From: Cytophagales bacterium
GTDB lineage: Bacteria > Bacteroidota > Bacteroidia > Cytophagales > Microscillaceae
Assembly: GCA_031425615.1 (NCBI GenBank)
Contig: JANPJR010000030.1
Location: 146,492 to 210,491, forward strand
DNA length: 64,000 bases
Reading direction: 5' to 3'
Position 1 is the first letter of the stretch. Each line of letters begins with the position of its first letter. The notes beneath the pieces were generated by a model, which had not been told where the DNA came from, searched no databases, and saw only the letters and a program-made list of their open reading frames with translations. A program made the translations under genes and the position numbers. Positions 4,892-61,610 of this stretch are shown in pieces.

Positions 4892-5518
4892 GGTTGTTGT
4901 TTTGTTTATTAAAAAAAATAACAAAAATATGTTTGAAATTACCACAAAAATTATAAACTAAAAAATTATGCTAAAATTAACTTAGCAAAAAATTTCCTTT
5001 CCTATTTCCAAAAAAAACCAGTTGCCCACAAATAGAAATTCTAGAGATTTCCCCAAAAATGAAAATTGGTTTTCCCATTTTGGTTTTATTATCCCGCTAA
5101 AACCTACAAACATAAAAAAACCTCCCGATTCCAACATGCAACTCATTTTTAATCTGCTTACTACTACACAAAAGTATGATTTTTTCACTAAGAAATCAAC
5201 AAGCTAATTTTTTTAGCTATAAAAAAACCAATCACATTTTGAAATGAGAGAAATGATAATTTTACACAAATGATATTTTATTTATTTCCTGTTTCTTTGG
5301 GTGAATCAAAACCTATATGGAAAGAGGAAAAAGAAGCTTGGCAATCAAAGGAAAATAGACGAATAGAAATTGAGGTTTTTGAGTAGTATGAGCGTTTTTT
5401 TTTGCTATTACTTATTTACTATTACCCAAAACATCCTTTTTTTACATATTTATTGCTTTAAAAAAATAAAAAAACGTATTTTTGCATTTTTTTAACTTTC
5501 TAAATTGCCACAAAAAAC

Positions 5519-6040: not shown

Positions 6041-6062
6041 ATATCTGTTTCCAAACAAAAAA

Positions 6063-6094
6063 GCCACAATGATACAATTTCATTGTGGTTTTTT
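6063..6094 (+). terminator. Rho-independent terminator hairpin (gccacaatg-atacaattt-cattgtgg plus T-run)
   Basis: Seen directly. A near-identical copy sits at 7747-7780. Confidence 0.75.
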
Positions 6095-6124
6095 TCCAAA
6101 AAAATTTTTTAGCTATTTTCTTAT

Positions 6125-6185
6125 ATAATGGAACGATTGTTCCATTATAATTGTATGAAATATAATGGAACGATTGTTCCACTAT
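6125..6185. promoter_or_regulatory. Two copies of the 16-bp palindrome TGGAACGATTGTTCCA, 36 bp apart, each embedded in ATAATGGAACGATTGTTCCAyTAT. Candidate TetR-type operator pair.
   Basis: Palindromes at about 6129-6144 and 6165-6180, 40 to 95 bp upstream of the SDR start at 6221. A TetR regulator is the next gene downstream. Confidence 0.55.
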
Positions 6186-6220
6186 ATTTATTTTTTTACC
6201 AAAATACAATTTTAATCAAA

Positions 6221-6982
6221 ATGAGTAAATTACAAAATAAACTCGCAGTAATTACAGGTGGTAATAGTGGCATAGGGCTTGCTACTGCAAAGCTTTTTAT
6301 CCAAGAAGGTGCAAAAGTTATCATCACAGGCAGAAATCAAAAAAATGTTGATGAAGCTATAAAATTATTGGGTGACAATGCAGTAGGAATTTTGGCAGAT
6401 ACCGCTAATATTGCCCACACAGACAGTTTAGTAAAACAAATTAGTGAAAAATTTGGAAAAATTGATGTACTTTTTGTAAATGCTGGCATTGCCAAATTTG
6501 CACCTATTGACCAAACAACTGAAGCATTTTTTGATGAAACCATCAACATCAACCTCAAAGGTGCGTTTTTCACAAGCCAAAAATTTGTACCTATTTTGAA
6601 AGATGGTGCATCTATTATTTTTAATACAACCATTGCCTATCATGTAGGAATGCCCAATGCGAGTGTATATGCTGCGAGCAAAGCAGGTTTGTTGGCTTTT
6701 GCTAAGGTATTGGCTACCGAAGTATCTACAAGAGGTATTAGGGTAAATTCGGTAAGCCCAGGCCCTATTGCTACACCAATTTATAGCAAACTTGGTTTTC
6801 CGCAAGAAGCTATTGATGCTATGGGGTCTGCGCTTTCTGCAAAAACGCTTTTAGGACGTTTTGGAGAAGCAGAAGAAATCGCAAAAGTAGCTTTGTTTTT
6901 GGCAAGCAATGACAGTTCTTATATCACAGGGGCAGAAATCATAGCTGATGGCGGATTACTTTTAAATCCAACAGACAGGTAG
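6221..6982 (+). CDS. SDR-family NAD(P)-dependent oxidoreductase
   Basis: MSKLQNKLAVITGGNSGIGLATAK gives the TGxxxGIG Rossmann motif. YAASK is the catalytic YxxxK. Start moved to the in-frame ATG at 6221 (the track ORF starts at 6128 inside the operator region). Confidence 0.9.
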   Translation: MSKLQNKLAVITGGNSGIGLATAKLFIQEGAKVIITGRNQKNVDEAIKLLGDNAVGILADTANIAHTDSLVKQISEKFGKIDVLFVNAGIAKFAPIDQTTEAFFDETININLKGAFFTSQKFVPILKDGASIIFNTTIAYHVGMPNASVYAASKAGLLAFAKVLATEVSTRGIRVNSVSPGPIATPIYSKLGFPQEAIDAMGSALSAKTLLGRFGEAEEIAKVALFLASNDSSYITGAEIIADGGLLLNPTDR

Positions 6983-7107
6983 ATTTTTAGAGATTTTTTC
7001 CAAAAACTAAATACCTTTGCTTTCCGTTTTTGAAAGTGAAGGTATTTTTTTGTATTTTCAATTTTTCGCTTGATTTTCGTTTTTTAAAAACCAATTCCAA
7101 AATAATT

Positions 7108-7686
7108 ATGGCACGCACAAAAAGATTTGAAGAATGTGAAATATTGGAAAAAGCAATTTCACTTTTTTGGACAAAAGGCTATCATGCTACTTCTATTGAT
7201 GATTTGACCAAATACTTGGGCATTAGTAGGTCAAGTTTGTATGATACTTTTGGCGGAAAAAAAGAACTTTTTATGATTTCTTTGCAAAATTATATCCAAA
7301 AATCGCATCAACAAGTATTTTCAATTGTAAAAGATACAATTTCAGGCATTGAAAAAATACAAGTTTTAGTTAAAAACGTAATTGAAAGTTTTGCTGATGG
7401 AAAAGAACGAAAAGGCTGTTTTATGGTAAATGTTGCCAGCGAATTAGCAAATCAAGATGATGAAATATATGAATTTACACAAAAAAACTTAGAAGCTGTA
7501 AAAGAAATATTTAAGAAAATAATTACACAAGGACAAATAGATGGCACTATTTCCACAAAAAATAATGCTGATAATTTGGCATATTTTTTATTTAATATGT
7601 ATAATGGACTGCAAGTATCAGGCAAAATGGGTGCTTCGCAAGAAACGCTCTGGTCTATGTGGTATGTAGCAGAAACGTGTTTTTAA
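7108..7686 (+). CDS. TetR/AcrR-family transcriptional regulator
   Basis: MARTKRFEECEILEKAISLFWTKGYHATSIDDLTKYLGISRSSLYDTFGGKKELF is the TetR N-terminal HTH. Start placed at the in-frame ATG at 7108. Confidence 0.9.
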   Translation: MARTKRFEECEILEKAISLFWTKGYHATSIDDLTKYLGISRSSLYDTFGGKKELFMISLQNYIQKSHQQVFSIVKDTISGIEKIQVLVKNVIESFADGKERKGCFMVNVASELANQDDEIYEFTQKNLEAVKEIFKKIITQGQIDGTISTKNNADNLAYFLFNMYNGLQVSGKMGASQETLWSMWYVAETCF

Positions 7687-7746
7687 AAAATTTGATTTAG
7701 TTTATGTTTTATATTTTTTCAATTTTCAAATAAAAAAGCCAAAAAA

Positions 7747-7780
7747 GCCACAATGATACAATTTCATTGTGGCTTTTTTA
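7747..7780 (+). terminator. Rho-independent terminator, duplicate of 6063-6094 (gccacaatgatacaatttcattgtggc plus T-run)
   Basis: Identical 27-nt hairpin sequence, seen directly. Confidence 0.75.
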
Positions 7781-7887
7781 TTTTTAGTATAAAAAAATTG
7801 GGTAATTTTACTTTTTTTTAGGTTTTTTAAATTTTTTGGATAAATTTACTTTTTTTTTAGATTTTCAAAATTTTAATAATATATTAC

Positions 7888-8162
7888 CTTACTACTATAC
7901 ATCTTTTTAGAATTTTAAAAAAGTGCTTTTAAACGATTTAAACACAATATTTTTAATAACATTTTCGAAAAATTGGGTCTGCACCGTAGTTTATGGAGGT
8001 CTGCCCCTGTTTTTTTGAAAAATTACAAACTGAAAACAGCGTTAAACACCATATTTGTTTTAGTTTTTCAAAAAAACGTATTATTTTTTAGTAAAAACTA
8101 TTTAAAAAAGCCTTTTTCCTGCGTTTTGAGTATTTTTTTTTTTAAATCTGTATAGTAGTAAG
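7888..8162. mobile_element. MITE-like non-autonomous element, copy A (~275 bp). Perfect 14-bp TIRs CTTACTACTATACA / TGTATAGTAGTAAG with a 9-bp TSD ATATATTAC.
   Basis: TIRs at 7888-7901 and 8149-8162. The direct repeat atatattac flanks both ends (7879-7887 and 8163-8171). About 90% identical to copy B at 25626-25898. The only ORF inside is a spurious 60-aa frame. Confidence 0.75.
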
Positions 8163-8205
8163 ATATATTACATAAAAAACCACTAAAACTTAAATACACA
8201 CTGTT

Positions 8206-11107: not shown

Positions 11108-11179
11108 CTTAAAAATGCAAAATATAATTTGGTGTAAATTAAAAAAATGAATTAACCAATTACTGAAAAAGTTATTTTC

Positions 11180-11212
11180 TGAACCTTAAACCTTTGAACC
11201 TTTTAAACTTTC
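11180..11212 (+). repeat. TTGAACCTT-family 9-mer tandem array, overlapping the dtd C-terminus
   Basis: tgaaccttaaacctttgaaccttttaaacttt. Its reverse complement encodes ...ESLKGSKV* of dtd. Confidence 0.7.
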
Positions 11213-11644
11213 CAATATAATTGTAACAGGTCCGTCATTGCACAAAGTTACTTGCATATCTGCCCCAAATTCACCTGTTGGAATAGGTTTTTGAAGAAGA
11301 TTTTGCAAAGTTATCACAAAATTATCATACAAAATTTTTGCTTTACCGGGTTTTGCGGATTTGATAAAAGATGGGCGATTGCCTTTTTGGGTATCTGCAT
11401 AAAGCGTAAATTGACTTATGACCAATATTTCACCTTGAATGTCCTGCACAGAAAGATTCATTTTACCATTTTCATCTGAAAAAATACGCATCTGCACAAT
11501 TTTTTTAGTCAAATATTGTATATCTTTCTCCTCGTCATCCTCCCCTACGCCCAACAATACCAATAAACCTTTTTTTATCTCGCCTTTTACATTGCCTTCT
11601 ATGCTTACTTGTGCATGGCTCACACGTTGAATAAGTGCTATCAT
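11186..11644 (-). CDS. dtd: D-aminoacyl-tRNA deacylase
   Basis: MIALIQRVSHAQVSIEG...GLLVLLGV...ISQFTLYADTQKGNRPSF...NDGPVTI are canonical Dtd motifs. Confidence 0.92.
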   Translation of the reverse strand: MIALIQRVSHAQVSIEGNVKGEIKKGLLVLLGVGEDDEEKDIQYLTKKIVQMRIFSDENGKMNLSVQDIQGEILVISQFTLYADTQKGNRPSFIKSAKPGKAKILYDNFVITLQNLLQKPIPTGEFGADMQVTLCNDGPVTIILESLKGSKV

Positions 11645-11777
11645 GATATTGTTGTTGTATCAATTTATTCAGTTTTTTGTTATCTGTTTATTTTTTGTTA
11701 CCTGTTTATCTATCTAAAACTCAATGGATTTTTTTAGCTCTTTGAATTTAACCTAAAAAAAAACAAAAATTATCCTT

Positions 11778-11828
11778 TTTGAACCTTGAACTTTTTGAAC
11801 CTTGAACTTTTAAACCTTGAACTTTCTA
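11778..11828 (+). repeat. TTGAACCTT-family tandem array (5-6 units) immediately 3' of the OmpA-family gene
   Basis: tttgaaccttgaactttttgaaccttgaacttttaaaccttgaactttc. Confidence 0.8.
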
Positions 11829-13172
11829 ATCTTTCACAACTTTTATCTCTACTCTGCGATTTTTGTGGCGATTTTCTTCTGTATCGTTTGGTGCTATTGG
11901 TTTGCTTTGTCCAAAACCTGTTGAACTGATGCGTGCTTTTTTGATAAACCCATGTTCCACAATATATTGTGCGATAGCTTGCGAGCGGTCTTTGGAAAGT
12001 TGGAGGTTAAAATTAGCATCACCAACATTGTCAGTATGCCCTGAGATTTCAATATGATAATTTGGGTGGTCTTGCAAAAATTGGCTTATCATATTCAATT
12101 CGGGAAAACTATTTTTACCAATAACTGCCTTTCCTGTTTCAAATTCAATATTGGGCAAAATCAAAATAGCCCCCAAATTACTGGGTTGCAACACAAAATT
12201 TTGTTCTACAATTTTTTGATTTGGCTTCAATTCCACCAAAATACGTTGGCTAAAAAAACCTTGTGCTTTTGCCTCCAAATAAAATTTGTTGGTATATTGC
12301 ATACGACTAAACTCATATTGTCCTTTTTCTTTTTTGTCTTTATTTTCCCTTTCAGTCAATTCAAAAGCCCTATAATTAACATCTGTAAGCACATAATCAA
12401 TGCGTGAGGCAAGCGGTTGAGCATCTATTCCACTAATAACTTTACCTTTAATTTGCACAAATTCTTCTTCGTCTGGCGAGTCGTCATCAAGCGGAATTAC
12501 TTGGATATCATCTATGTAATAATACGCCCCTTCATAGCCTCCTTTTTGCCTGCGAACTGCTTTTGTGCGTTCTATTGGAAAAAAATTGCCTACAAAAAGG
12601 TAGCTAAAATTTTCAGTTGGAATAACAGTTTTTTCTAATGTTGTCCAATTATTATAATCTGTCAAAGGATTTGCAAATTTAGCGTGTGCCATTTGTGCGT
12701 GATAGCTGTCTTTGGTGTCATTTGAAAATAACATACCCAAATTATCACAAGCAAAATTAGAATATTCTTCTGCCAAACTTGCTTTTAGGCTTATTTTATA
12801 TTTGTGCCCTTTGCGTACAGGCGAAGTAAGGCGTATAGCTATGATTTCTAACGGTGATTTGACATGATACGCCAAAATACCAGCATAATTCTTGCCTTCG
12901 GAAGGCATTTGATACCCAAAAAAATTATTTGGTGTTTGGATTTTATTGCTTTGGGCATCAGCACTAAATAAATCAGGCGTAAAATAATTTTTTTCCCAAC
13001 CTTCTGCATCTTCTATATCACCATATTCCACAGGAGGCATTTTAAGGATTTCAAAACCTCCATTTGGTACAAGATTTTTGGCAGAAATTGGATTTTTATT
13101 GGTTTCTTGTGCAAAATTTTCTTTGGAAAAAATTAAAAAAACCAATGTAAAAAAAATAAAATAGAAACGCAT
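11826..13172 (-). CDS. OmpA-family protein (N-terminal secreted domain plus C-terminal OmpA peptidoglycan-binding domain)
   Basis: Signal peptide. The C-terminus ISGHTDNVGDANFNLQLSKDRSQAIAQYIVEHG...NRRVEI is the OmpA_C motif set. Confidence 0.85.
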   Translation of the reverse strand: MRFYFIFFTLVFLIFSKENFAQETNKNPISAKNLVPNGGFEILKMPPVEYGDIEDAEGWEKNYFTPDLFSADAQSNKIQTPNNFFGYQMPSEGKNYAGILAYHVKSPLEIIAIRLTSPVRKGHKYKISLKASLAEEYSNFACDNLGMLFSNDTKDSYHAQMAHAKFANPLTDYNNWTTLEKTVIPTENFSYLFVGNFFPIERTKAVRRQKGGYEGAYYYIDDIQVIPLDDDSPDEEEFVQIKGKVISGIDAQPLASRIDYVLTDVNYRAFELTERENKDKKEKGQYEFSRMQYTNKFYLEAKAQGFFSQRILVELKPNQKIVEQNFVLQPSNLGAILILPNIEFETGKAVIGKNSFPELNMISQFLQDHPNYHIEISGHTDNVGDANFNLQLSKDRSQAIAQYIVEHGFIKKARISSTGFGQSKPIAPNDTEENRHKNRRVEIKVVKD

Positions 13173-23329: not shown

Positions 23330-25522
23330 ATGGCAATCCTTAGATTTAAGGCAGTAGAGCAAGCACAAAATCGTGAGGCAGTAATCCCAGTATTACCTGC
23401 AAGCAAAATTTCCGATTATTTTGGTATGAATGTTTTTGGCGAAAAATCCATGCGTGAATACCTAAGTGCAGATACATTCAAAAAATTTTCTGCGATGCTT
23501 GAACAAGGCGGAAAAATAGAAAATGAACTCGCTGACGCAGTTGCAAACGCTATGCGTACTTGGGCTATGAACAAAGGTGTGACCCATTATACACATTGGT
23601 TCCAACCGCTTACAGGCTCAACTGCTGAAAAACATGATGCTTTTTATGACATTGATAGCAAAGGCAATGCACTTGAAAAATTTAAAGGAAGTGCATTAGC
23701 ACAACAAGAACCAGATGCGTCTTCTTTCCCCAATGGTGGTATTCGTGCTACTTTTGAGGCAAGGGGTTATACTGCTTGGGACATTACTTCGCCTGCATTT
23801 ATCATGGAAACACAAGCAGGCAAAACACTTTGTATTCCTACAATTTTTGTGTCTTACACAGGCGAAGCCTTAGACTACAAAACGCCACTTTTGAAAGCAA
23901 TTTCTGCAGTAGATAAAGCCTCTGTGGCAGTATGTGAATTGTTTGATAAAGATGTAAAAAAGGTAATTGCAACATTGGGACCTGAACAAGAATATTTTTT
24001 GGTGGATAAAGCCCTTTATTATGCAAGACCAGATTTACTTATGGCAGGCAAAACCGTTTTTGGACACGCTCCCGCAAAAGGACAACAATTAGAAGACCAT
24101 TATTTTGGCTCAATTCCTACAAGGGTAAAAGCATATATGGTGGATTTTGAAATTGAAGCCCAAAAATTAGGTATTCCTATTCGCACACGACACAATGAAG
24201 TTGCACCTGCACAATTTGAATGTGCCCCTACTTTTGAAGAATTAAATTTGGCAGTTGACCATAATATCCTGCTCATGGACGTAATGGAAAAAGTAGCTGA
24301 AAAACATAATTTTAAAATTCTTTTTCATGAAAAACCTTTCGCTGGCATCAATGGAAGTGGAAAACACAATAACTGGGCATTAAGCACTGATACAGGCAAA
24401 AACCTCCTCGCCCCAACTTCAAAACCCAAAGAAAATTTGCAATTTTTGACATTTTTTGTCAATACAATTAAAGCAGTTCATGCGTATTCTGATTTGCTTA
24501 GGGCAAGTATTGCATCTGCGGGCAACGACTATCGTCTTGGGGCAAATGAAGCACCACCAGCCATTATTTCGGTATTTGTAGGAGCAGAATTAAAAAGAGT
24601 TTTGGAAGAATTGGAGCAAAATGCAACGATTGCCTTAGAAAAAGGTGATAATTTGTATATGAAAATGGGCATCAATAAAGTGCCTGCGATTATTTTGGAC
24701 ACCACAGACCGCAACCGTACTTCGCCTTTTGCTTTCACAGGCAATAAATTTGAGTTTAGGGCAGTGGGAAGTTCTGCAAATTGTGCTGCACCTATGATTG
24801 TGTTGAATGCAATTGTCGCAAAACAATTAATTCAATTCCGCAAAGATGTGGACAAAGAAGCAGAAAGCCTTGAAAAAAGGGAATATGCTATCGTAAATGT
24901 GTTGAGAAGATATATTTCCGAAAGCAAAAGTATTCTTTTTGAAGGCGACAATTATTCTGACGAATGGGTGGTAGAAGCAGAGAAACGTGGGCTTCCAAAT
25001 GTAAAATCTTCGCCAAGAGCATTGCAAGCATATATTTCGGATAAATCTTTGCACCTTTTTGAAGAATTAGGCATCATGTCGCACAGAGAAGTAGAAGCAA
25101 GATATGAAATCAACCTTGAAAACTACATCAAAAAAGTACAAATTGAGGCACGTGTAATGAATGATTTGGCACTCAACCATGTAATCCCTTCTGCGATAAT
25201 GTACCAAAATAAACTTATCCAAAACGTAAGAGGGCTTAAAGAAATTGGTCTTGGCGAAAATACAAGCGTGAAAACGTTGATTGATGCTATCAGCAATATT
25301 TCAGAACACATCAGCATTATCCAAAGTCAAACCGAAGAAATGATAGAAGCGCGCAAAAATGCAAATGTGATTGAAAATGCCTTTGATAAAGCGATTGCTT
25401 ATGAGGAAAATGTCAAAAAATATTTTGATGTTATTCGTCACAGCGTTGATAAATTGGAACTTATCGTTGATGACGAAGATTGGACTTTGCCAAAATATCG
25501 TGAGTTATTAATGGTAAGATAA
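23330..25522 (+). CDS. glnN: Glutamine synthetase, type III
   Basis: 730 aa with the Bacteroidota GSIII signature (N-terminal MAILRFKAV..., ...FHEKPFAGINGSGKHNNWAL...). Confidence 0.95.
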   Translation: MAILRFKAVEQAQNREAVIPVLPASKISDYFGMNVFGEKSMREYLSADTFKKFSAMLEQGGKIENELADAVANAMRTWAMNKGVTHYTHWFQPLTGSTAEKHDAFYDIDSKGNALEKFKGSALAQQEPDASSFPNGGIRATFEARGYTAWDITSPAFIMETQAGKTLCIPTIFVSYTGEALDYKTPLLKAISAVDKASVAVCELFDKDVKKVIATLGPEQEYFLVDKALYYARPDLLMAGKTVFGHAPAKGQQLEDHYFGSIPTRVKAYMVDFEIEAQKLGIPIRTRHNEVAPAQFECAPTFEELNLAVDHNILLMDVMEKVAEKHNFKILFHEKPFAGINGSGKHNNWALSTDTGKNLLAPTSKPKENLQFLTFFVNTIKAVHAYSDLLRASIASAGNDYRLGANEAPPAIISVFVGAELKRVLEELEQNATIALEKGDNLYMKMGINKVPAIILDTTDRNRTSPFAFTGNKFEFRAVGSSANCAAPMIVLNAIVAKQLIQFRKDVDKEAESLEKREYAIVNVLRRYISESKSILFEGDNYSDEWVVEAEKRGLPNVKSSPRALQAYISDKSLHLFEELGIMSHREVEARYEINLENYIKKVQIEARVMNDLALNHVIPSAIMYQNKLIQNVRGLKEIGLGENTSVKTLIDAISNISEHISIIQSQTEEMIEARKNANVIENAFDKAIAYEENVKKYFDVIRHSVDKLELIVDDEDWTLPKYRELLMVR

Positions 25523-25558: not shown

Positions 25559-25562
25559 AGTA

Positions 25563-25600
25563 AAAGCGTAAAAAAGTTTATTTTTTTACGCTTTTAATTT
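25563..25600 (+). terminator. Rho-independent terminator (agcgtaaaaaa...ttttttacgct plus T-run)
   Basis: Seen directly, downstream of glnN. Confidence 0.7.
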
Positions 25601-25625
25601 TTTTAAAGAAATAACTAAAAAATTC

Positions 25626-25898
25626 CTTACTATTATACATCTTTTTAGAATTAAAAAAAAGTGCTTTGGAACGATTTAAACACAATATTTTTAATGCCAT
25701 TTTTCAAAAATTGGATCTGTACTGTATTTTACGGAAGTCTGACCATGATTTTTTGAAAAATTACAAACTGAAAAAAGCGTTAAACACCATATTTGTTTTA
25801 GTTTTTCAAAAAAAACGTATTATTTTTTAGTAAAAACTATTTAAAAAAGCCTTTTCCTGCGTTTTGAATATGTTTTTTTAAATTTGTATAGTAGTGAG
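25626..25898. mobile_element. MITE-like element, copy B (~273 bp). TIRs CTTACTATTATACA / TGTATAGTAGTGAG. 9-bp TSD AAAAAATTC.
   Basis: About 90% identity to copy A over the full length. The direct repeat aaaaaattc flanks both ends (25617-25625 and 25899-25907). Confidence 0.75.
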
Positions 25899-25931
25899 AA
25901 AAAATTCCTAATTTTTTCATTTCTAATTCTT

Positions 25932-26510
25932 TTAGATTTCTTCTGCTACCACCGTTTGCACTTCTGGAATCATGCGTTTTAGGAGGTTTTCAATGCCCAT
26001 TTTAAGGGTTTGACTTGCAGAAGGACAACCACTACATGAGCCTTGCAAACGTACTGTAACAGTGCCATTATCAAAGGCATGAAAATTGATAGCACCGCCA
26101 TCTTGTTCTACCGCAGGGCGTACATATTCGTCCAAAATTTTGCGAATACGCAAGTTTATTTCAGGTTCTGAATCGCTTATTTGGCTTTCGTGGAGTAATG
26201 CAGATGCAAAAAGTGGTTTATTTGCTTCCAAATATTCTTTGAGAAATGATTTGAGTTCAGGCGCAACTTCATACCAATCCGCATCTTCAGATTTGGTAAG
26301 TGTAATAAAATTATTCATTACAAAAACCCTTTTGATAAAAGGGAAATCAAAAAAAGCATTTGCTAAAGGTGATTCTAAGGCACTTTCTTTGTTTGGAAAG
26401 TCAAACGTAACACCTTCAGGCACAAGAATATAATTTGCCACAAATTTCAAAGATTGTGGATTTGGGCTTGCTTCTGTGTAGAGTGTTACGAATTTTGGTT
26501 TGTTATTCAT
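25932..26510 (-). CDS. NifU/Nfu-family Fe-S cluster scaffold protein (Nfu N-domain plus NifU C-domain, CxxC)
   Basis: GGAINFHAFDNGTVTVRLQGSCSGCPSASQTLKMGIENLL is the NifU_C CxxC motif. Confidence 0.88.
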   Translation of the reverse strand: MNNKPKFVTLYTEASPNPQSLKFVANYILVPEGVTFDFPNKESALESPLANAFFDFPFIKRVFVMNNFITLTKSEDADWYEVAPELKSFLKEYLEANKPLFASALLHESQISDSEPEINLRIRKILDEYVRPAVEQDGGAINFHAFDNGTVTVRLQGSCSGCPSASQTLKMGIENLLKRMIPEVQTVVAEEI

Positions 26511-30066: not shown

Positions 30067-30300
30067 GAGGCTATCATACTCTGATAATTTTAGCATTACT
30101 AAACCTATAATGTTTTTTAAAACCTTATAAGTTTTGAAACACTTATTTTAAATAATATGTTAAATTATAATTTAATTTTAAAAAAAACACTTAAAGATTA
30201 AAAAATAAATAAATTTTATATTTTTTTGTAACAAAAATATTGAAATAAAAACCTCCAATAAAATTGTCAGCGTACCAAGTCTATTAAATCAGAATTTTTT

Positions 30301-30355
30301 TGAATTTTGAACCTTGAACCTTTTGAACCTTGAACCTTTTGAACTTTGAACCTTA
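30301..30355 (+). repeat. TTGAACCTT-family tandem array (6 units) immediately 3' of cvpA
   Basis: tgaattttgaaccttgaaccttttgaaccttgaaccttttgaactttgaacctta. Confidence 0.8.
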
Positions 30356-30871
30356 ATCTATAAAATCTCGTATCATTTTGGATAATTCGTCTTCATCTTT
30401 TACACCTGTGAGAATGTATGCTACTGTTTCTACTAATTTATACATAAAAGATTTTTTTTGTAACTCATTATGAAATTCACCAAGCCCAGTCATAAACCAA
30501 AATATAAAACTCAATACCACAATATTACGCAAAATACCAAAAAATGCGCCTAAATAGTTGTCCCATTGTCCAGGAAATTCATAATCTATTTCAGATTTTA
30601 GATATTGCCCTAATGTATGGACAAGTTGCACAGCGGTAAGCACTGACACCGCAAAAACAAGTTCAGGATAGATGGTTTGATTAAATTTGAACATGTGCGT
30701 TGACATTAGATTGAACAATACTGAACAAAGTTTGAAGCACACCAAAAATGACAACACAAAATGCAAAAGCTTGACAACTTCTTGCAAAATGCCTTCTCTA
30801 TACCCAATATATGCACCCCAACCAATCGTGGAGGCTATCAATAAATCCAATACAATGCCTGGTATGTTCAA
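30353..30871 (-). CDS. cvpA: CvpA-family membrane protein (colicin V production protein-like)
   Basis: Four-TM CvpA architecture. The start codon is apparently TTG and overlaps an inverted TTGAACCTT-family array. Confidence 0.8.
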   Translation of the reverse strand: MNIPGIVLDLLIASTIGWGAYIGYREGILQEVVKLLHFVLSFLVCFKLCSVLFNLMSTHMFKFNQTIYPELVFAVSVLTAVQLVHTLGQYLKSEIDYEFPGQWDNYLGAFFGILRNIVVLSFIFWFMTGLGEFHNELQKKSFMYKLVETVAYILTGVKDEDELSKMIRDFID

Positions 30872-50528: not shown

Positions 50529-50634
50529 TGTTGTAAAGTAAATATATAATTGTAATAAGTGGATTTTTTCAGAAAATCAGGTCAAACCTCCGTAAACTAT
50601 TGGTGGATACCAATTTTCTGAAAAAATACTAATT

Positions 50635-52338
50635 TTATTTATTATCAATCATACCAAGACCACTTTTTCGGATAATTTTCTTTTCAATCAAATCCTTAGA
50701 GAGCGAATCAAGCATACCATTGATAAAATTTTTGCTTTTTTGGGTGCTATATTCTTTGGCAACTTCTACATATTCATTGATAGAAACTTTGACAGGTATG
50801 CTATACGCAAATACAAATTCTGCGATTGCCATTTTGAGGATAACCCTATCAATTTTTGCAAAGCGTGAGATATGCCAATTTTGAGATTTTTCTTGGAGAT
50901 ATGTTTCATATTCCGTTTCGTTTTTAAGCGTATTTACATACAAATCACGCATAAAATCCTTATCATCTGACCAATTACGTGAGATATGAAATAGCTCAAA
51001 ATCTGTGTCCAACTCATTTTGAATGGCTCTAAGCGTTTTCATTACCATACTTTCTATAGCAAGTACGTCTTCGTCCCAATGCAAAAGTTGCGAAGTCCCC
51101 CACGCATACATTTGTGAGTTGATATTGTCGTGATGTGTTTGCAATAATACATGTAGGCTATCATTCCATTCAATATCCAAGATATCAAGCATTTTGGCAA
51201 TGCCTGCATTGATGGCGTTGAGGTTGCGTGGGTGAAACCCTACATCATGCAAATAACTTGTACTCAAATATTCTGAAAAACCATCTACGATAGCTTTTAG
51301 TGAATATTCTGCTACATTTTCAGGGCGTTCTTCTTTGATAAGTTCGCCTTTTTGCAAAGCCCTTTCACGTCTTTGCATACTTTTTTCAGCGTCTTTGCGA
51401 ATAGGTGCGTGTTTTTGTTTGAGGTGTTGAATGAGGATTTTCGCTAATTTTTCTTCTTCTATTGCATTATCATGTGAATATAAATTAGACAAAAAACTTT
51501 TTGCTACGTTATTTACTGCATTTTCCACCAATCGCAATACACCTTCCAAACCATTTTTATCAATAATTCGCCTTACAAAACTATATGTAATACTACAATC
51601 TTTGATGCTATAATAATATACTGATTTTTTACCAAAAATAATATCTGAAAAAATATACAACATTATTTCTTTGTCTTCTTCAAAAGATGTAGTTGTTTTA
51701 TTGTTGTAAGCAATATATTTTTCGTTTGTTTTGATTTGGGTAACATACCATTCCCTGAGATAATCCATTTCTTTGTCCCACGAGATATTTTTGCGTGAAA
51801 TTGCTTGTTGGATTTTGGGGTGTTTGCTAATAACAAAACTGATTTCGTTTTTTTCCATTTTAAAATCGCCCAATACATCATATTTACGTATGTGTGATTC
51901 TTGGACGATTGTTTTTTCATTTTTCACCAATTCACTCAACGTAGTTGTAAGCAACAAAAATTTGATATAAATGTCGTGTATTTTTTCTGTGTTTTGAATA
52001 AGTTGGAGAAGATTTGTTTCTCTATTGATGCGAACTGCCTCGTTGTAGTATTGAATTGCCTTGATAACTGCATTGCGTGTTTTGGAGGAAATTCCTGTAA
52101 GGGCTAAAAAGTCGTTTTCTTTGAGATAATAGTCCAAAAAATATTTATGGGCTTCTTTGCGTTGCTCATCCAGCGTTTCGTCATCAATATAAGCCTTTTC
52201 TGTCCAATCAGGAGTCAATATTTTGGTGATTTGTTGTTGAGCACGTTCAAATTCTGTATCACGTGTATTTTCAAAAGCATATAACGCTTGCATTGCTTTT
52301 ACACGAAGATGATGACGATTTAGCATATCAAAGAGCAT
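50635..52338 (-). CDS. nusB: Transcription antitermination factor NusB homolog carrying a ~400-aa internal insertion
   Basis: N-terminus MLNRHHLRVKAMQALYAFE (the NusB start signature) and C-terminus IDRVILKMAIAEFVF...PVKVSINEYVEVAKEYS...NFINGMLD (the NusB C-terminal signature), separated by a long unique region. Start placed at the internal ATG (track ORF is 52425). Confidence 0.7.
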   Translation of the reverse strand: MLFDMLNRHHLRVKAMQALYAFENTRDTEFERAQQQITKILTPDWTEKAYIDDETLDEQRKEAHKYFLDYYLKENDFLALTGISSKTRNAVIKAIQYYNEAVRINRETNLLQLIQNTEKIHDIYIKFLLLTTTLSELVKNEKTIVQESHIRKYDVLGDFKMEKNEISFVISKHPKIQQAISRKNISWDKEMDYLREWYVTQIKTNEKYIAYNNKTTTSFEEDKEIMLYIFSDIIFGKKSVYYYSIKDCSITYSFVRRIIDKNGLEGVLRLVENAVNNVAKSFLSNLYSHDNAIEEEKLAKILIQHLKQKHAPIRKDAEKSMQRRERALQKGELIKEERPENVAEYSLKAIVDGFSEYLSTSYLHDVGFHPRNLNAINAGIAKMLDILDIEWNDSLHVLLQTHHDNINSQMYAWGTSQLLHWDEDVLAIESMVMKTLRAIQNELDTDFELFHISRNWSDDKDFMRDLYVNTLKNETEYETYLQEKSQNWHISRFAKIDRVILKMAIAEFVFAYSIPVKVSINEYVEVAKEYSTQKSKNFINGMLDSLSKDLIEKKIIRKSGLGMIDNK

Positions 52339-52522
52339 TAGCCTTTTCAAAAGAAGGCTTTTTTTAGAATTAAAAAATGAAAAAGAGATAAATAAAAATA
52401 TGCTTCTTATTGTGATAAAAAGCATATTTCTGCAAAAATAGTGATTTTTAAGAAAAAATCCAAATATAACCTAAAATCAAAAGAGGGAATTAGTACAAAG
52501 AGCAAAAAAGTAGCAAATTTTT

Positions 52523-52835
52523 CTCACTACTATACAAATTTAAAAAAAAACTTGTTCAAAATGCAGAAAAAGGTTTTTTCTAAATGTTTTTTATTGAAAA
52601 AATAATACATTTCTTTCTTACTACTATACAAATTTAAAAAAAATACATTCAAAATACATAAAACAGGCTTTTTTTAAGGATTTTACCTAAAAAAATATTT
52701 TTTTCTTTGAGAAATTAAAAAAAAATGCGTTTATGGTTGTGGTTGGTTGGTAAATTTTTAAAAATGTTATAAAAAAACCTTTTCAAACGATTTAAAACAC
52801 TTTTTTTAGACTGTGAAAATGTATAACAGTAAGAG
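52523..52835. mobile_element. Degenerate or rearranged MITE-like element, copy C. Two direct copies of the left TIR (CTCACTACTATACA at 52523, CTTACTACTATACA at 52607) and a degenerate right TIR (TGTATAACAGTAAG, about 52820).
   Basis: Shares the TIR motif and internal segments (aaacgatttaaaacac, ccgtaaaat) with copies A and B, but is diverged. Confidence 0.5.
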
Positions 52836-60858: not shown

Positions 60859-60949
60859 TTTTTTAGAAAAAAACTTTAAATTTTATGTTTTTTTTAAGCA
60901 AAAAAATAATTTATTGTTATTGTTTTTACTATACGAATTTACGAAAACC

Positions 60950-60981
60950 AACAACTAAAAAACTGACAACTGATAACTTGC
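60950..60981 (+). repeat. AACTGACAACTGATAACT motif array
   Basis: acaactaaaaaactgacaactgataacttgc. Confidence 0.6.
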
Positions 60982-61610
60982 TTTATTTTTATTAAAAATT
61001 GTATTTTTTTAAGAAACTAAAAAAGAGCGTTTTTTTATACTAATATAAAAAAACACTCTTTTTTTAATTTTTTCAAAATTTTCTTCTGAAATTTTAATTT
61101 TTGCCTATTGTCATTTGTTTGTACAAGTATCTCCAAAAAACACGGTTTTTTGACTATTTTTTGCCCCTAAATCTCCAAAATGGACTTTAAATATGATATT
61201 TTTTTGTATTTGTTCCTTATTTAAAATTTGGGCAATTTTTTATTTTTTGATGCGATTACGCATTACGTTTCAAGTGGGAAGCCTGTGCTACAAATAGACC
61301 TGCAATAAATACCAACAAAATAGCGACTAACATAATAAATTTTTGAGTTTTGAATAAGGTTTGTCATAAACTCTATGCAAAGATACGCATGTTCTAATAG
61401 GTTGTTGCATTTCAGTAGAAAATTTCACAAAAACTTAACATGAATTTTCAAAAAATTGTATTATTCCGATATAAAGTATTATTTGAAAATGAAAAAATGA
61501 TTTTGATAAAATTAAAAAATTAGGTTTTTTACAAAAACTAAAAAAATTAAAATAACCAATTTCTTTATTTTTTGGATATTTTTGCAAAAGTTAAAAAAAT
61601 CTTGATTTTA

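Follow-up and report, generated by a model that had tools for sequence, protein, structure and literature searches.

The Correia elements of Neisseria have 26-bp terminal inverted repeats (TIRs) and a TA duplication, and they can bring promoters, terminators and protein-binding sites near genes. The repeat family described here is likewise small, TIR-bounded and intergenic, and in both kinds of element long subtypes stand beside short ones that have lost internal sequence, much as copies A and B compare with copy C1 below; in contrast to the Correia elements, its TIRs measure 14 bp and its target-site duplication 9 bp. Miniature inverted-repeat transposable elements (MITEs) are non-coding deletion or assembly derivatives of an insertion sequence of which just the transposase-binding ends are kept. 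In Porphyromonas gingivalis, the MITEs BrickBuilt and MITE239/PgRS are present in about 10-20 copies and their TIRs are related to a resident IS family (PMC4596501). They share with our element a short, AT-rich, strictly intergenic and non-autonomous sequence with a modular interior, and a host in the Bacteroidota (PMC4596501). The two differ in that the P. gingivalis TIRs (GAGACCTTTGCA) are ISPg/IS5-like with short or variable duplications and the interior is a minisatellite (PMC4596501), whereas the ends of our element are IS50-like with a fixed 9-bp duplication and its interior is a hairpin module, and there is no sequence similarity between them.

For the ends themselves, the relevant comparison is with Tn5, whose outside end is CTGACTCTTATACACAAGT and whose mosaic end is CTGTCTCTTATACACATCT (PMC2566895). 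In a survey of the IS4 family (PMC2266710), the IS50 subgroup has the end consensus CW------Y---CA-A--W- and direct repeats of 8-9 bp, the IS10 subgroup an end consensus starting CT with a direct repeat of 9 bp, and the ISPepr1 subgroup the end consensus YT-AA-YTT---A with direct repeats of 7-8 bp; the survey reports members of the IS10 and IS50 subgroups from proteobacteria. Our element starts 5'-CT as Tn5/IS50 ends do, and the TATACA at positions 9-14 of its TIR is common to the outside and mosaic ends of Tn5. In contrast, the Tn5 end spans 19 bp and the inverted repeat of the element only 14 bp, Tn5/IS50 encodes a transposase whereas the element is 217-275 bp long without a transposase gene, and its host is an uncultured Cytophagales bacterium as opposed to the proteobacterial hosts reported for the IS10 and IS50 subgroups (PMC2266710).

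The window, by which we mean the whole stretch of 64,000 nucleotides that was analysed, is ordinary chromosomal DNA of this Cytophagales bacterium. Two of the copies in it are long, and their features, together with the gene beside copy B, are as follows.

7888-8162, plus strand: MITE copy A, 275 bp, full-length type, from sequence reads and motif searches
7888-7901 and 8149-8162: TIRs of copy A, CTTACTACTATACA and TGTATAGTAGTAAG, 14/14 complementary (exact reverse complement)
7879-7887: left target-site duplication of copy A, ATATATTAC, directly abutting the TIR
8163-8171: right target-site duplication of copy A, ATATATTAC, 9/9 identical to the left one and directly abutting the TIR
25626-25898, plus strand: MITE copy B, 273 bp, 91.5% identity to copy A
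25626-25639 and 25885-25898: TIRs of copy B, CTTACTATTATACA and TGTATAGTAGTGAG, one mismatch each against the copy A motif
25617-25625: left target-site duplication of copy B, AAAAAATTC
25899-25907: right target-site duplication of copy B, AAAAAATTC, 9/9 identical to the left one
25932-26510, minus strand: NifU-like gene

In the alignment of copies A and B, 249 columns match, 23 mismatch and 4 contain a gap, which corresponds to 91.5% identity without gaps and 90.2% across all columns. The reads and the alignment thus agree with the initial annotation, which had placed two copies of about 275 bp and about 90% identity at these coordinates and had noted a distinct 9-bp direct repeat around each; both repeats, ATATATTAC for A and AAAAAATTC for B, are perfect (9/9). 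Its description of the TIRs as perfect over 14 bp applies to copy A and has to be relaxed for copy B, which carries one mismatch per end, so that complementarity between the two TIRs is 14/14 in A and 12/14 in B, as it also is in C1. In the 40 nt beyond the duplications, A and B are identical at 20/40 positions on one side and 11/40 on the other, which is about the level expected for DNA so AT-rich. Since the flanks are at chance-level identity, the homology stops exactly at the TIRs, and this excludes a segmental duplication that took the flanks along, the very outcome that had been named in advance as fatal to the interpretation. The central reading of a non-autonomous MITE with independent insertions therefore stands, carried by the TIRs, by two different perfect 9-bp duplications and by homology that stops at the TIRs. 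Only these two copies show clean duplications.

A third locus lies on the minus strand, and a solitary end lies near the start of the window.

52617-52833, minus strand: copy C1, a complete 217-bp short variant
52820-52833, minus strand: left TIR of C1, two mismatches
52617-52630, minus strand: right TIR of C1, no mismatch
52523-52616, minus strand: copy C2, a 94-bp right-end fragment that directly abuts the right tip of C1
52523-52536, minus strand: TIR of C2, one mismatch
5157-5170, plus strand: orphan TIR-like 14-mer CTTACTACTACACA, one mismatch, 0.00 expected by chance

The end regions of C1 are homologous to those of A and B, but its centre differs (ACCAACCAACCACAACC...) and is without the hairpin module. 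Global alignment of C1 against A gave z of about 14. An nhmmer model of A, B and C1 returned C1 with E = 2.8e-45, C1 itself being a member of that model, and a model of A and B matched the right half of C1 with E = 7e-11. C2 corresponds to the last third of a full-length-type copy, covering model positions of about 184-276 (nhmmer E = 2.5e-10) and, in local alignment, positions 183-273 of copy B. The third, degenerate copy originally reported at 52523-52835 is thus present as a locus, although it is a composite of C1 and C2 on the minus strand, and the count of two TIR motifs given for it was too low, as three TIR-like motifs are found, at 52523, 52617 and 52820. The family is accordingly made up of at least two subtypes with common ends and different centres. 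A search for a 9-bp duplication abutting either C1 or C1 and C2 together found none. The 10-mer TACATTTCTT sits 1 nt beyond one tip of C1 and 10 nt beyond the other, a coincidence with a chance of about 0.3%, and its displaced offset leaves the history of the locus ambiguous. We also considered the DNA past the left tip of C1 as the missing left half of C2, and the similarity was not significant. We infer that C1 landed in or beside an older copy (C2) and that adjacent DNA was lost afterwards.

The orphan end lies in the 573 bp that separate a LytTR response-regulator gene from the dCTP deaminase gene, with neither a partner end nor a transposase-like ORF remnant beside it. The segment 5157-5396 was rejected as a fourth copy, as it had no internal similarity to A or C1 (z 0.4-2.4). 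Finally, a stretch on the minus strand at 60927-61032, including TAAATTCGTATAGTA, matched the right third of the MITE weakly (nhmmer E = 0.012), and about this interval may represent a highly degenerate right-end remnant. The same stretch overlaps one CTGACAAC repeat.

To set these motifs against chance, shuffled sequences were used. The TIR 14-mer occurs 7 times in the window with at most one mismatch (0.00 expected) and 8 times with at most two (0.36 expected), and the paired-TIR pattern occurs at three loci (0.00 expected). Related Bacteroidota DNA amounting to 1.3 Mb contained only 7 matches to the TIR with at most two mismatches, all of them unpaired. Identity of flanks at 9/9 positions with a spacing of 275 bp was reached at 3e-5 of random window positions. 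The motif and duplication features are far beyond what chance can account for, and we conclude that the repeat is a real family of MITEs, as had been observed at the outset.

All copies of the element are intergenic. Copy A lies between the terminator of a TetR gene (7741-7779) and the start of a DUF4153 gene (8206), copy B between the convergent glutamine synthetase III (GSIII) gene, which ends at 25522, and the NifU-like gene, and the C locus between a NusB-domain gene and a gene whose product has no known function. The terminator of the GSIII gene occupies 25561-25596, and copy B lies 20 nt beyond it. The NusB-domain gene is a 596-aa ORF (50635-52425, minus strand) whose sole Pfam match is the NusB domain at residues 481-576; we take it to be much longer than a typical NusB, most of it an unexplained N-terminal extension. 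The GSIII encoded in the window has 94% protein identity to that of MAG WN_Cytophagales_8 and 78% to those of two other MAGs. In this nearest relative, with 86% DNA identity in the GSIII gene, the neighbouring genes differ and synteny is lost, and the comparison of 80 GSIII loci yielded no empty site.

The element had been called non-coding, and the ORF analysis bears this out. The longest internal ORFs are of 60 and 54 aa, and their frames and sequences differ between A and B, so that only ORFs of at most 60 aa, unconserved between the copies, are present. A 31-aa GTG-initiated ORF is kept in A (7923-8018) and B (25661-25756), where it spans the hairpin module, and it looks non-coding because 10 of its 31 residues differ between the two. 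Screening against Rfam 15 covariance models at the gathering score gave no match in the window, and the element itself returned only chance-level hairpin matches (E of at least 1); with no Rfam match, a known RNA family was rejected as its identity. No Pfam transposase domain was detected among the 54 ORFs of at least 90 aa in the window (0/54), in line with the earlier remark that the window holds no cognate transposase.

Evidence for copies elsewhere comes from assemblies and protein records. Run SRR20217183 supplies two independent Logan contigs that agree with the window at 100% identity and that both break off within a copy: L001 ends at 8102, in copy A, and L083, which covers C1 at 100% identity, ends at 52625, in the TIR of C1. 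Contig ends inside copies are expected of a multi-copy repeat in short-read assembly. Searching 5.8 billion proteins with the spurious 60-aa ORF of copy A yielded one relative, P0001 (51 aa), which lies on a 372-kb NCBI contig and has 78% identity to the translation of A and 72-80% to that of B. The window does not encode P0001, which therefore marks at least one more full-length copy outside it, and the dispersed copies now comprise three loci and the orphan end within 64 kb, as well as the P0001 copy elsewhere. The exact 22-nt right-end pattern had 0 matches in 185,579 species genomes and JGI metagenomes, collections from which the source genome and its close relatives are absent. A gapped two-TIR pattern had 0 matches in viral contigs, and its sole metagenome match (L082) was rejected, being a perfect palindrome of 370 bp that is unrelated to the element and shows no similarity to its interior. 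No match to copy A was found by blastn in the PLSDB plasmids. Exact-protein look-ups of the flanking genes returned only two Logan contigs of one sample (SRR20217183), and those of the GSIII, NifU and NusB-domain proteins found none on record.

The element is very probably a MITE moved by a DDE transposase. Such an enzyme, encoded elsewhere in the genome or since lost, would bind the 14-bp-plus TIRs (CTTACTACTATACA...), pair both ends and excise the element; the 3'-OH ends would then be joined to target DNA over a 9-bp stagger, and repair of the stagger would give rise to the 9-bp direct repeats. IS4-family IS50-like transposases work by cut-and-paste through hairpin intermediates, and mobilisation of the MITE family in trans by a DDE transposase of this kind is the explanation that we consider probable.

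The evidence for this assignment lies in the ends. Counted from the tip and in the same register, 11/14 positions of the element TIR agree with the outside end of Tn5. Window 14-mers as similar to the Tn5 outside end make up about 7e-5 of the total, and most or all of them are the element ends themselves. The IS50 consensus (PMC2266710) is matched at 7/7 positions by all four right ends and by the orphan end, and at 5-6/7 by the left ends, which deviate from it at position 16 and, in C1, also at position 19. By way of background, 1.2e-3 of window 20-mers match the consensus in full. The 9-bp duplication of A and B falls within the 8-9 bp given there for the IS50 subgroup (PMC2266710). The ISPepr1 subgroup was rejected, with 4-5/8 of the consensus positions and a duplication of 9 bp, not 7-8 bp, and the consensus patterns for ISPepr1, IS231, ISH8, IS4Sa, IS4, IS701, ISH3 and IS1634 were not satisfied. 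An IS4-family enzyme had been among the initial suggestions, and with the Tn5 and IS50 values above (11/14, and 7/7 for the right ends) it is the best-fitting candidate.

Neither an autonomous element nor a transposase was found in the window, in the 1.3 Mb of relatives' DNA or in the DNA pattern scans. A tblastn search with a Tn5 transposase sequence gave nothing in the window and the 1.3 Mb of loci, and there was no autonomous copy in the window or loci with the IS50-subgroup trait of a DDE and YREK transposase in a 1350-1550-bp element. As no partner transposase was found, the link to IS50 is drawn from about 20 nt of end sequence and the length of the duplication, and on these grounds we lean towards an IS4-family, IS50-like identity for the transposase.

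The MITE might instead have been moved by another DDE family (the IS10 subgroup, IS1, IS256, IS903-type IS5, ISAs1 or IS982) or by an undescribed one. A 9-bp duplication is not unique to IS50; the direct repeat of IS10 is likewise 9 bp long, and its two-base consensus, "CT", is satisfied trivially by the element ends; and the window and loci offer no transposase to settle the family. On the other hand, the ends of IS1, IS256, IS903-type IS5 and ISAs1 generally start with GG, GA or CAGG, not CT. The fit of the ends to the specific consensus of IS50 (7/7) and to the outside end of Tn5 (11/14), and the failure of the ISPepr1, IS231, IS4, IS701 and ISH3 patterns, also speak against this alternative, which we regard as unlikely.

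The interior of the long copies holds a hairpin module that also occurs by itself.

7960-8035, plus strand: central hairpin module of copy A, from its fold and from an nhmmer match (E = 3e-20) to a five-sequence model partly built from this module, and hence a match by construction
25697-25773: hairpin module of copy B
50557-50627, minus strand: stand-alone hairpin module, folding at -21.5 kcal/mol (z -3.9)
6529-6598 and 2932-3003 of L002, another uncultured Bacteroidota MAG: two intergenic hairpin modules

The module comprises about 70 nt in which AT-rich complementary arms enclose GGGTCTGCACC, a conserved 12-nt stretch and GGTCTGCCCC, and two GGTCTGNCC-like direct repeats flank the conserved stretch. 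The stand-alone copy sits between convergent genes and starts 8 nt after the NusB-domain gene stops. No module was present in the other 79 loci fetched by the GSIII query, and the stand-alone modules had no match to an Rfam family. The hairpin module alone is shared with the 50557-50627 region; a similarity between the region preceding the hairpin and the 3' end of the NusB-domain coding sequence was rejected as not significant, since 153/500 and 13/500 shuffles reach it. Judging from position and fold, the stand-alone module could be a lineage-specific terminator or protein-binding motif, and it is possible to speculate that the full-length element may deliver a terminator-like or protein-binding hairpin.

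The repeat might then be seen primarily as a dispersed intergenic cassette with a function of its own (a small RNA gene, a terminator or a hairpin that binds protein), spread by recombination or by a REP/BIME-like, non-DDE route through a RAYT or IS200/IS605-type enzyme, with inverted ends that are incidental. The module does occur alone, at 50557-50627 and twice in L002, and the intergenic position of every element copy would suit such a cassette. However, the copy-specific 9-bp duplications that abut the TIRs are not made by REP or IS200/605-type mobility, and there is no Rfam match. Moreover, C1 keeps both ends and lacks the hairpin module, which means that it is the ends, not the hairpin, by which the family is defined. 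We therefore consider this explanation very improbable, and a REP/BIME-type or IS200/IS605-derived palindromic element as such was rejected, contradicted by the clear TIRs and the 9-bp duplications. An immobile origin, through segmental duplication or as a chance repeat in AT-rich DNA, might draw on a genome of about 32% G+C whose low-complexity intergenic DNA has many short repeats, but it is effectively refuted by the 91.5% identity of A and B over 275 bp with sharp TIR boundaries and unrelated flanks, and by motif and duplication statistics far past chance.

Returning to a MITE mobilised by an IS50-like transposase, we note a sequence in its right ends that bears on possible cargo. In B, C1 and C2, TAAATTTG lies 10 nt from the tip, and copy A has TAAATCTG. 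The Bacteroidetes -7 promoter motif is TAnnTTTG, which TAAATTTG fits, and the right end points towards the start of a downstream gene at both the A and the C locus. We read the -7-like box and the hairpin as hints of possible regulatory side-effects, not as findings. A bolder version would make the element more than selfish DNA, a modular carrier that spreads the lineage-conserved hairpin, as a bidirectional terminator or protein-binding site, together with an outward-facing -7 box, that rewires the expression of its neighbours and that is driven by an undescribed Cytophagales lineage of IS50-like transposases; as a whole, we think it quite improbable.

Copy B had also been said to contain half of a TetR operator. 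The sequence TGGAACGATT is indeed present once in copy B and at 6129 and 6166, where it is the left half of the palindrome TGGAACGATTGTTCCA. Copy A, however, reads TTAAACGATT at the corresponding place, and since the half-site amounts to two substitutions private to B and the other half of the palindrome is absent, it is probably a coincidence and was rejected as a functional site. The palindromes themselves, ATAATGGAACGATTGTTCCAyTAT, occur twice, at 6127-6150 and 6163-6186, 37 bp apart, at the start of a short-chain dehydrogenase (SDR) gene that is followed by a TetR-family gene (7030-7686), and a TetR operator pair is a plausible reading of the two. A 40-nt terminator-like hairpin, AAAAAAGCCACAATGATACAATTTCATTGTGGyTTTTTT, also occurs twice (6056-6095 and 7740-7779, 98% identity), bracketing the SDR-TetR gene pair; it could be a repeated terminator cassette or the trace of acquisition of a two-gene module. 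Other repeats in the window comprise arrays of TTGAACCTTGAAC (11161-11849, 30282-30362, 31211, 34816 and 45332), the AAAACTGACAACTGACAAC repeat (4027, 47090, 48419 and 60958) and the GC-rich, palindrome-like AGCCCCCTAACCCCCAAAGGGGGAA repeat (2107, 28177, 39776 and 45264). These three families are short, dispersed and intergenic, and none is related to the MITE.

Altogether, the element is a further example of a well-known kind and not a new kind; the understanding of MITEs is unchanged and the biological interest is modest. For annotation, it explains assembly breaks of this genome, as with the two contigs that stop within copies. It is also a sign that transposition took place recently in this uncultured Cytophagales lineage, and the insertions by the starts of the DUF4153 and NusB-domain genes could affect expression. 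The reading further predicts that an IS50-like transposase is present, or was until recently, in the source genome; if true, this would extend the hosts of Tn5-like elements to a member of the Cytophagales.
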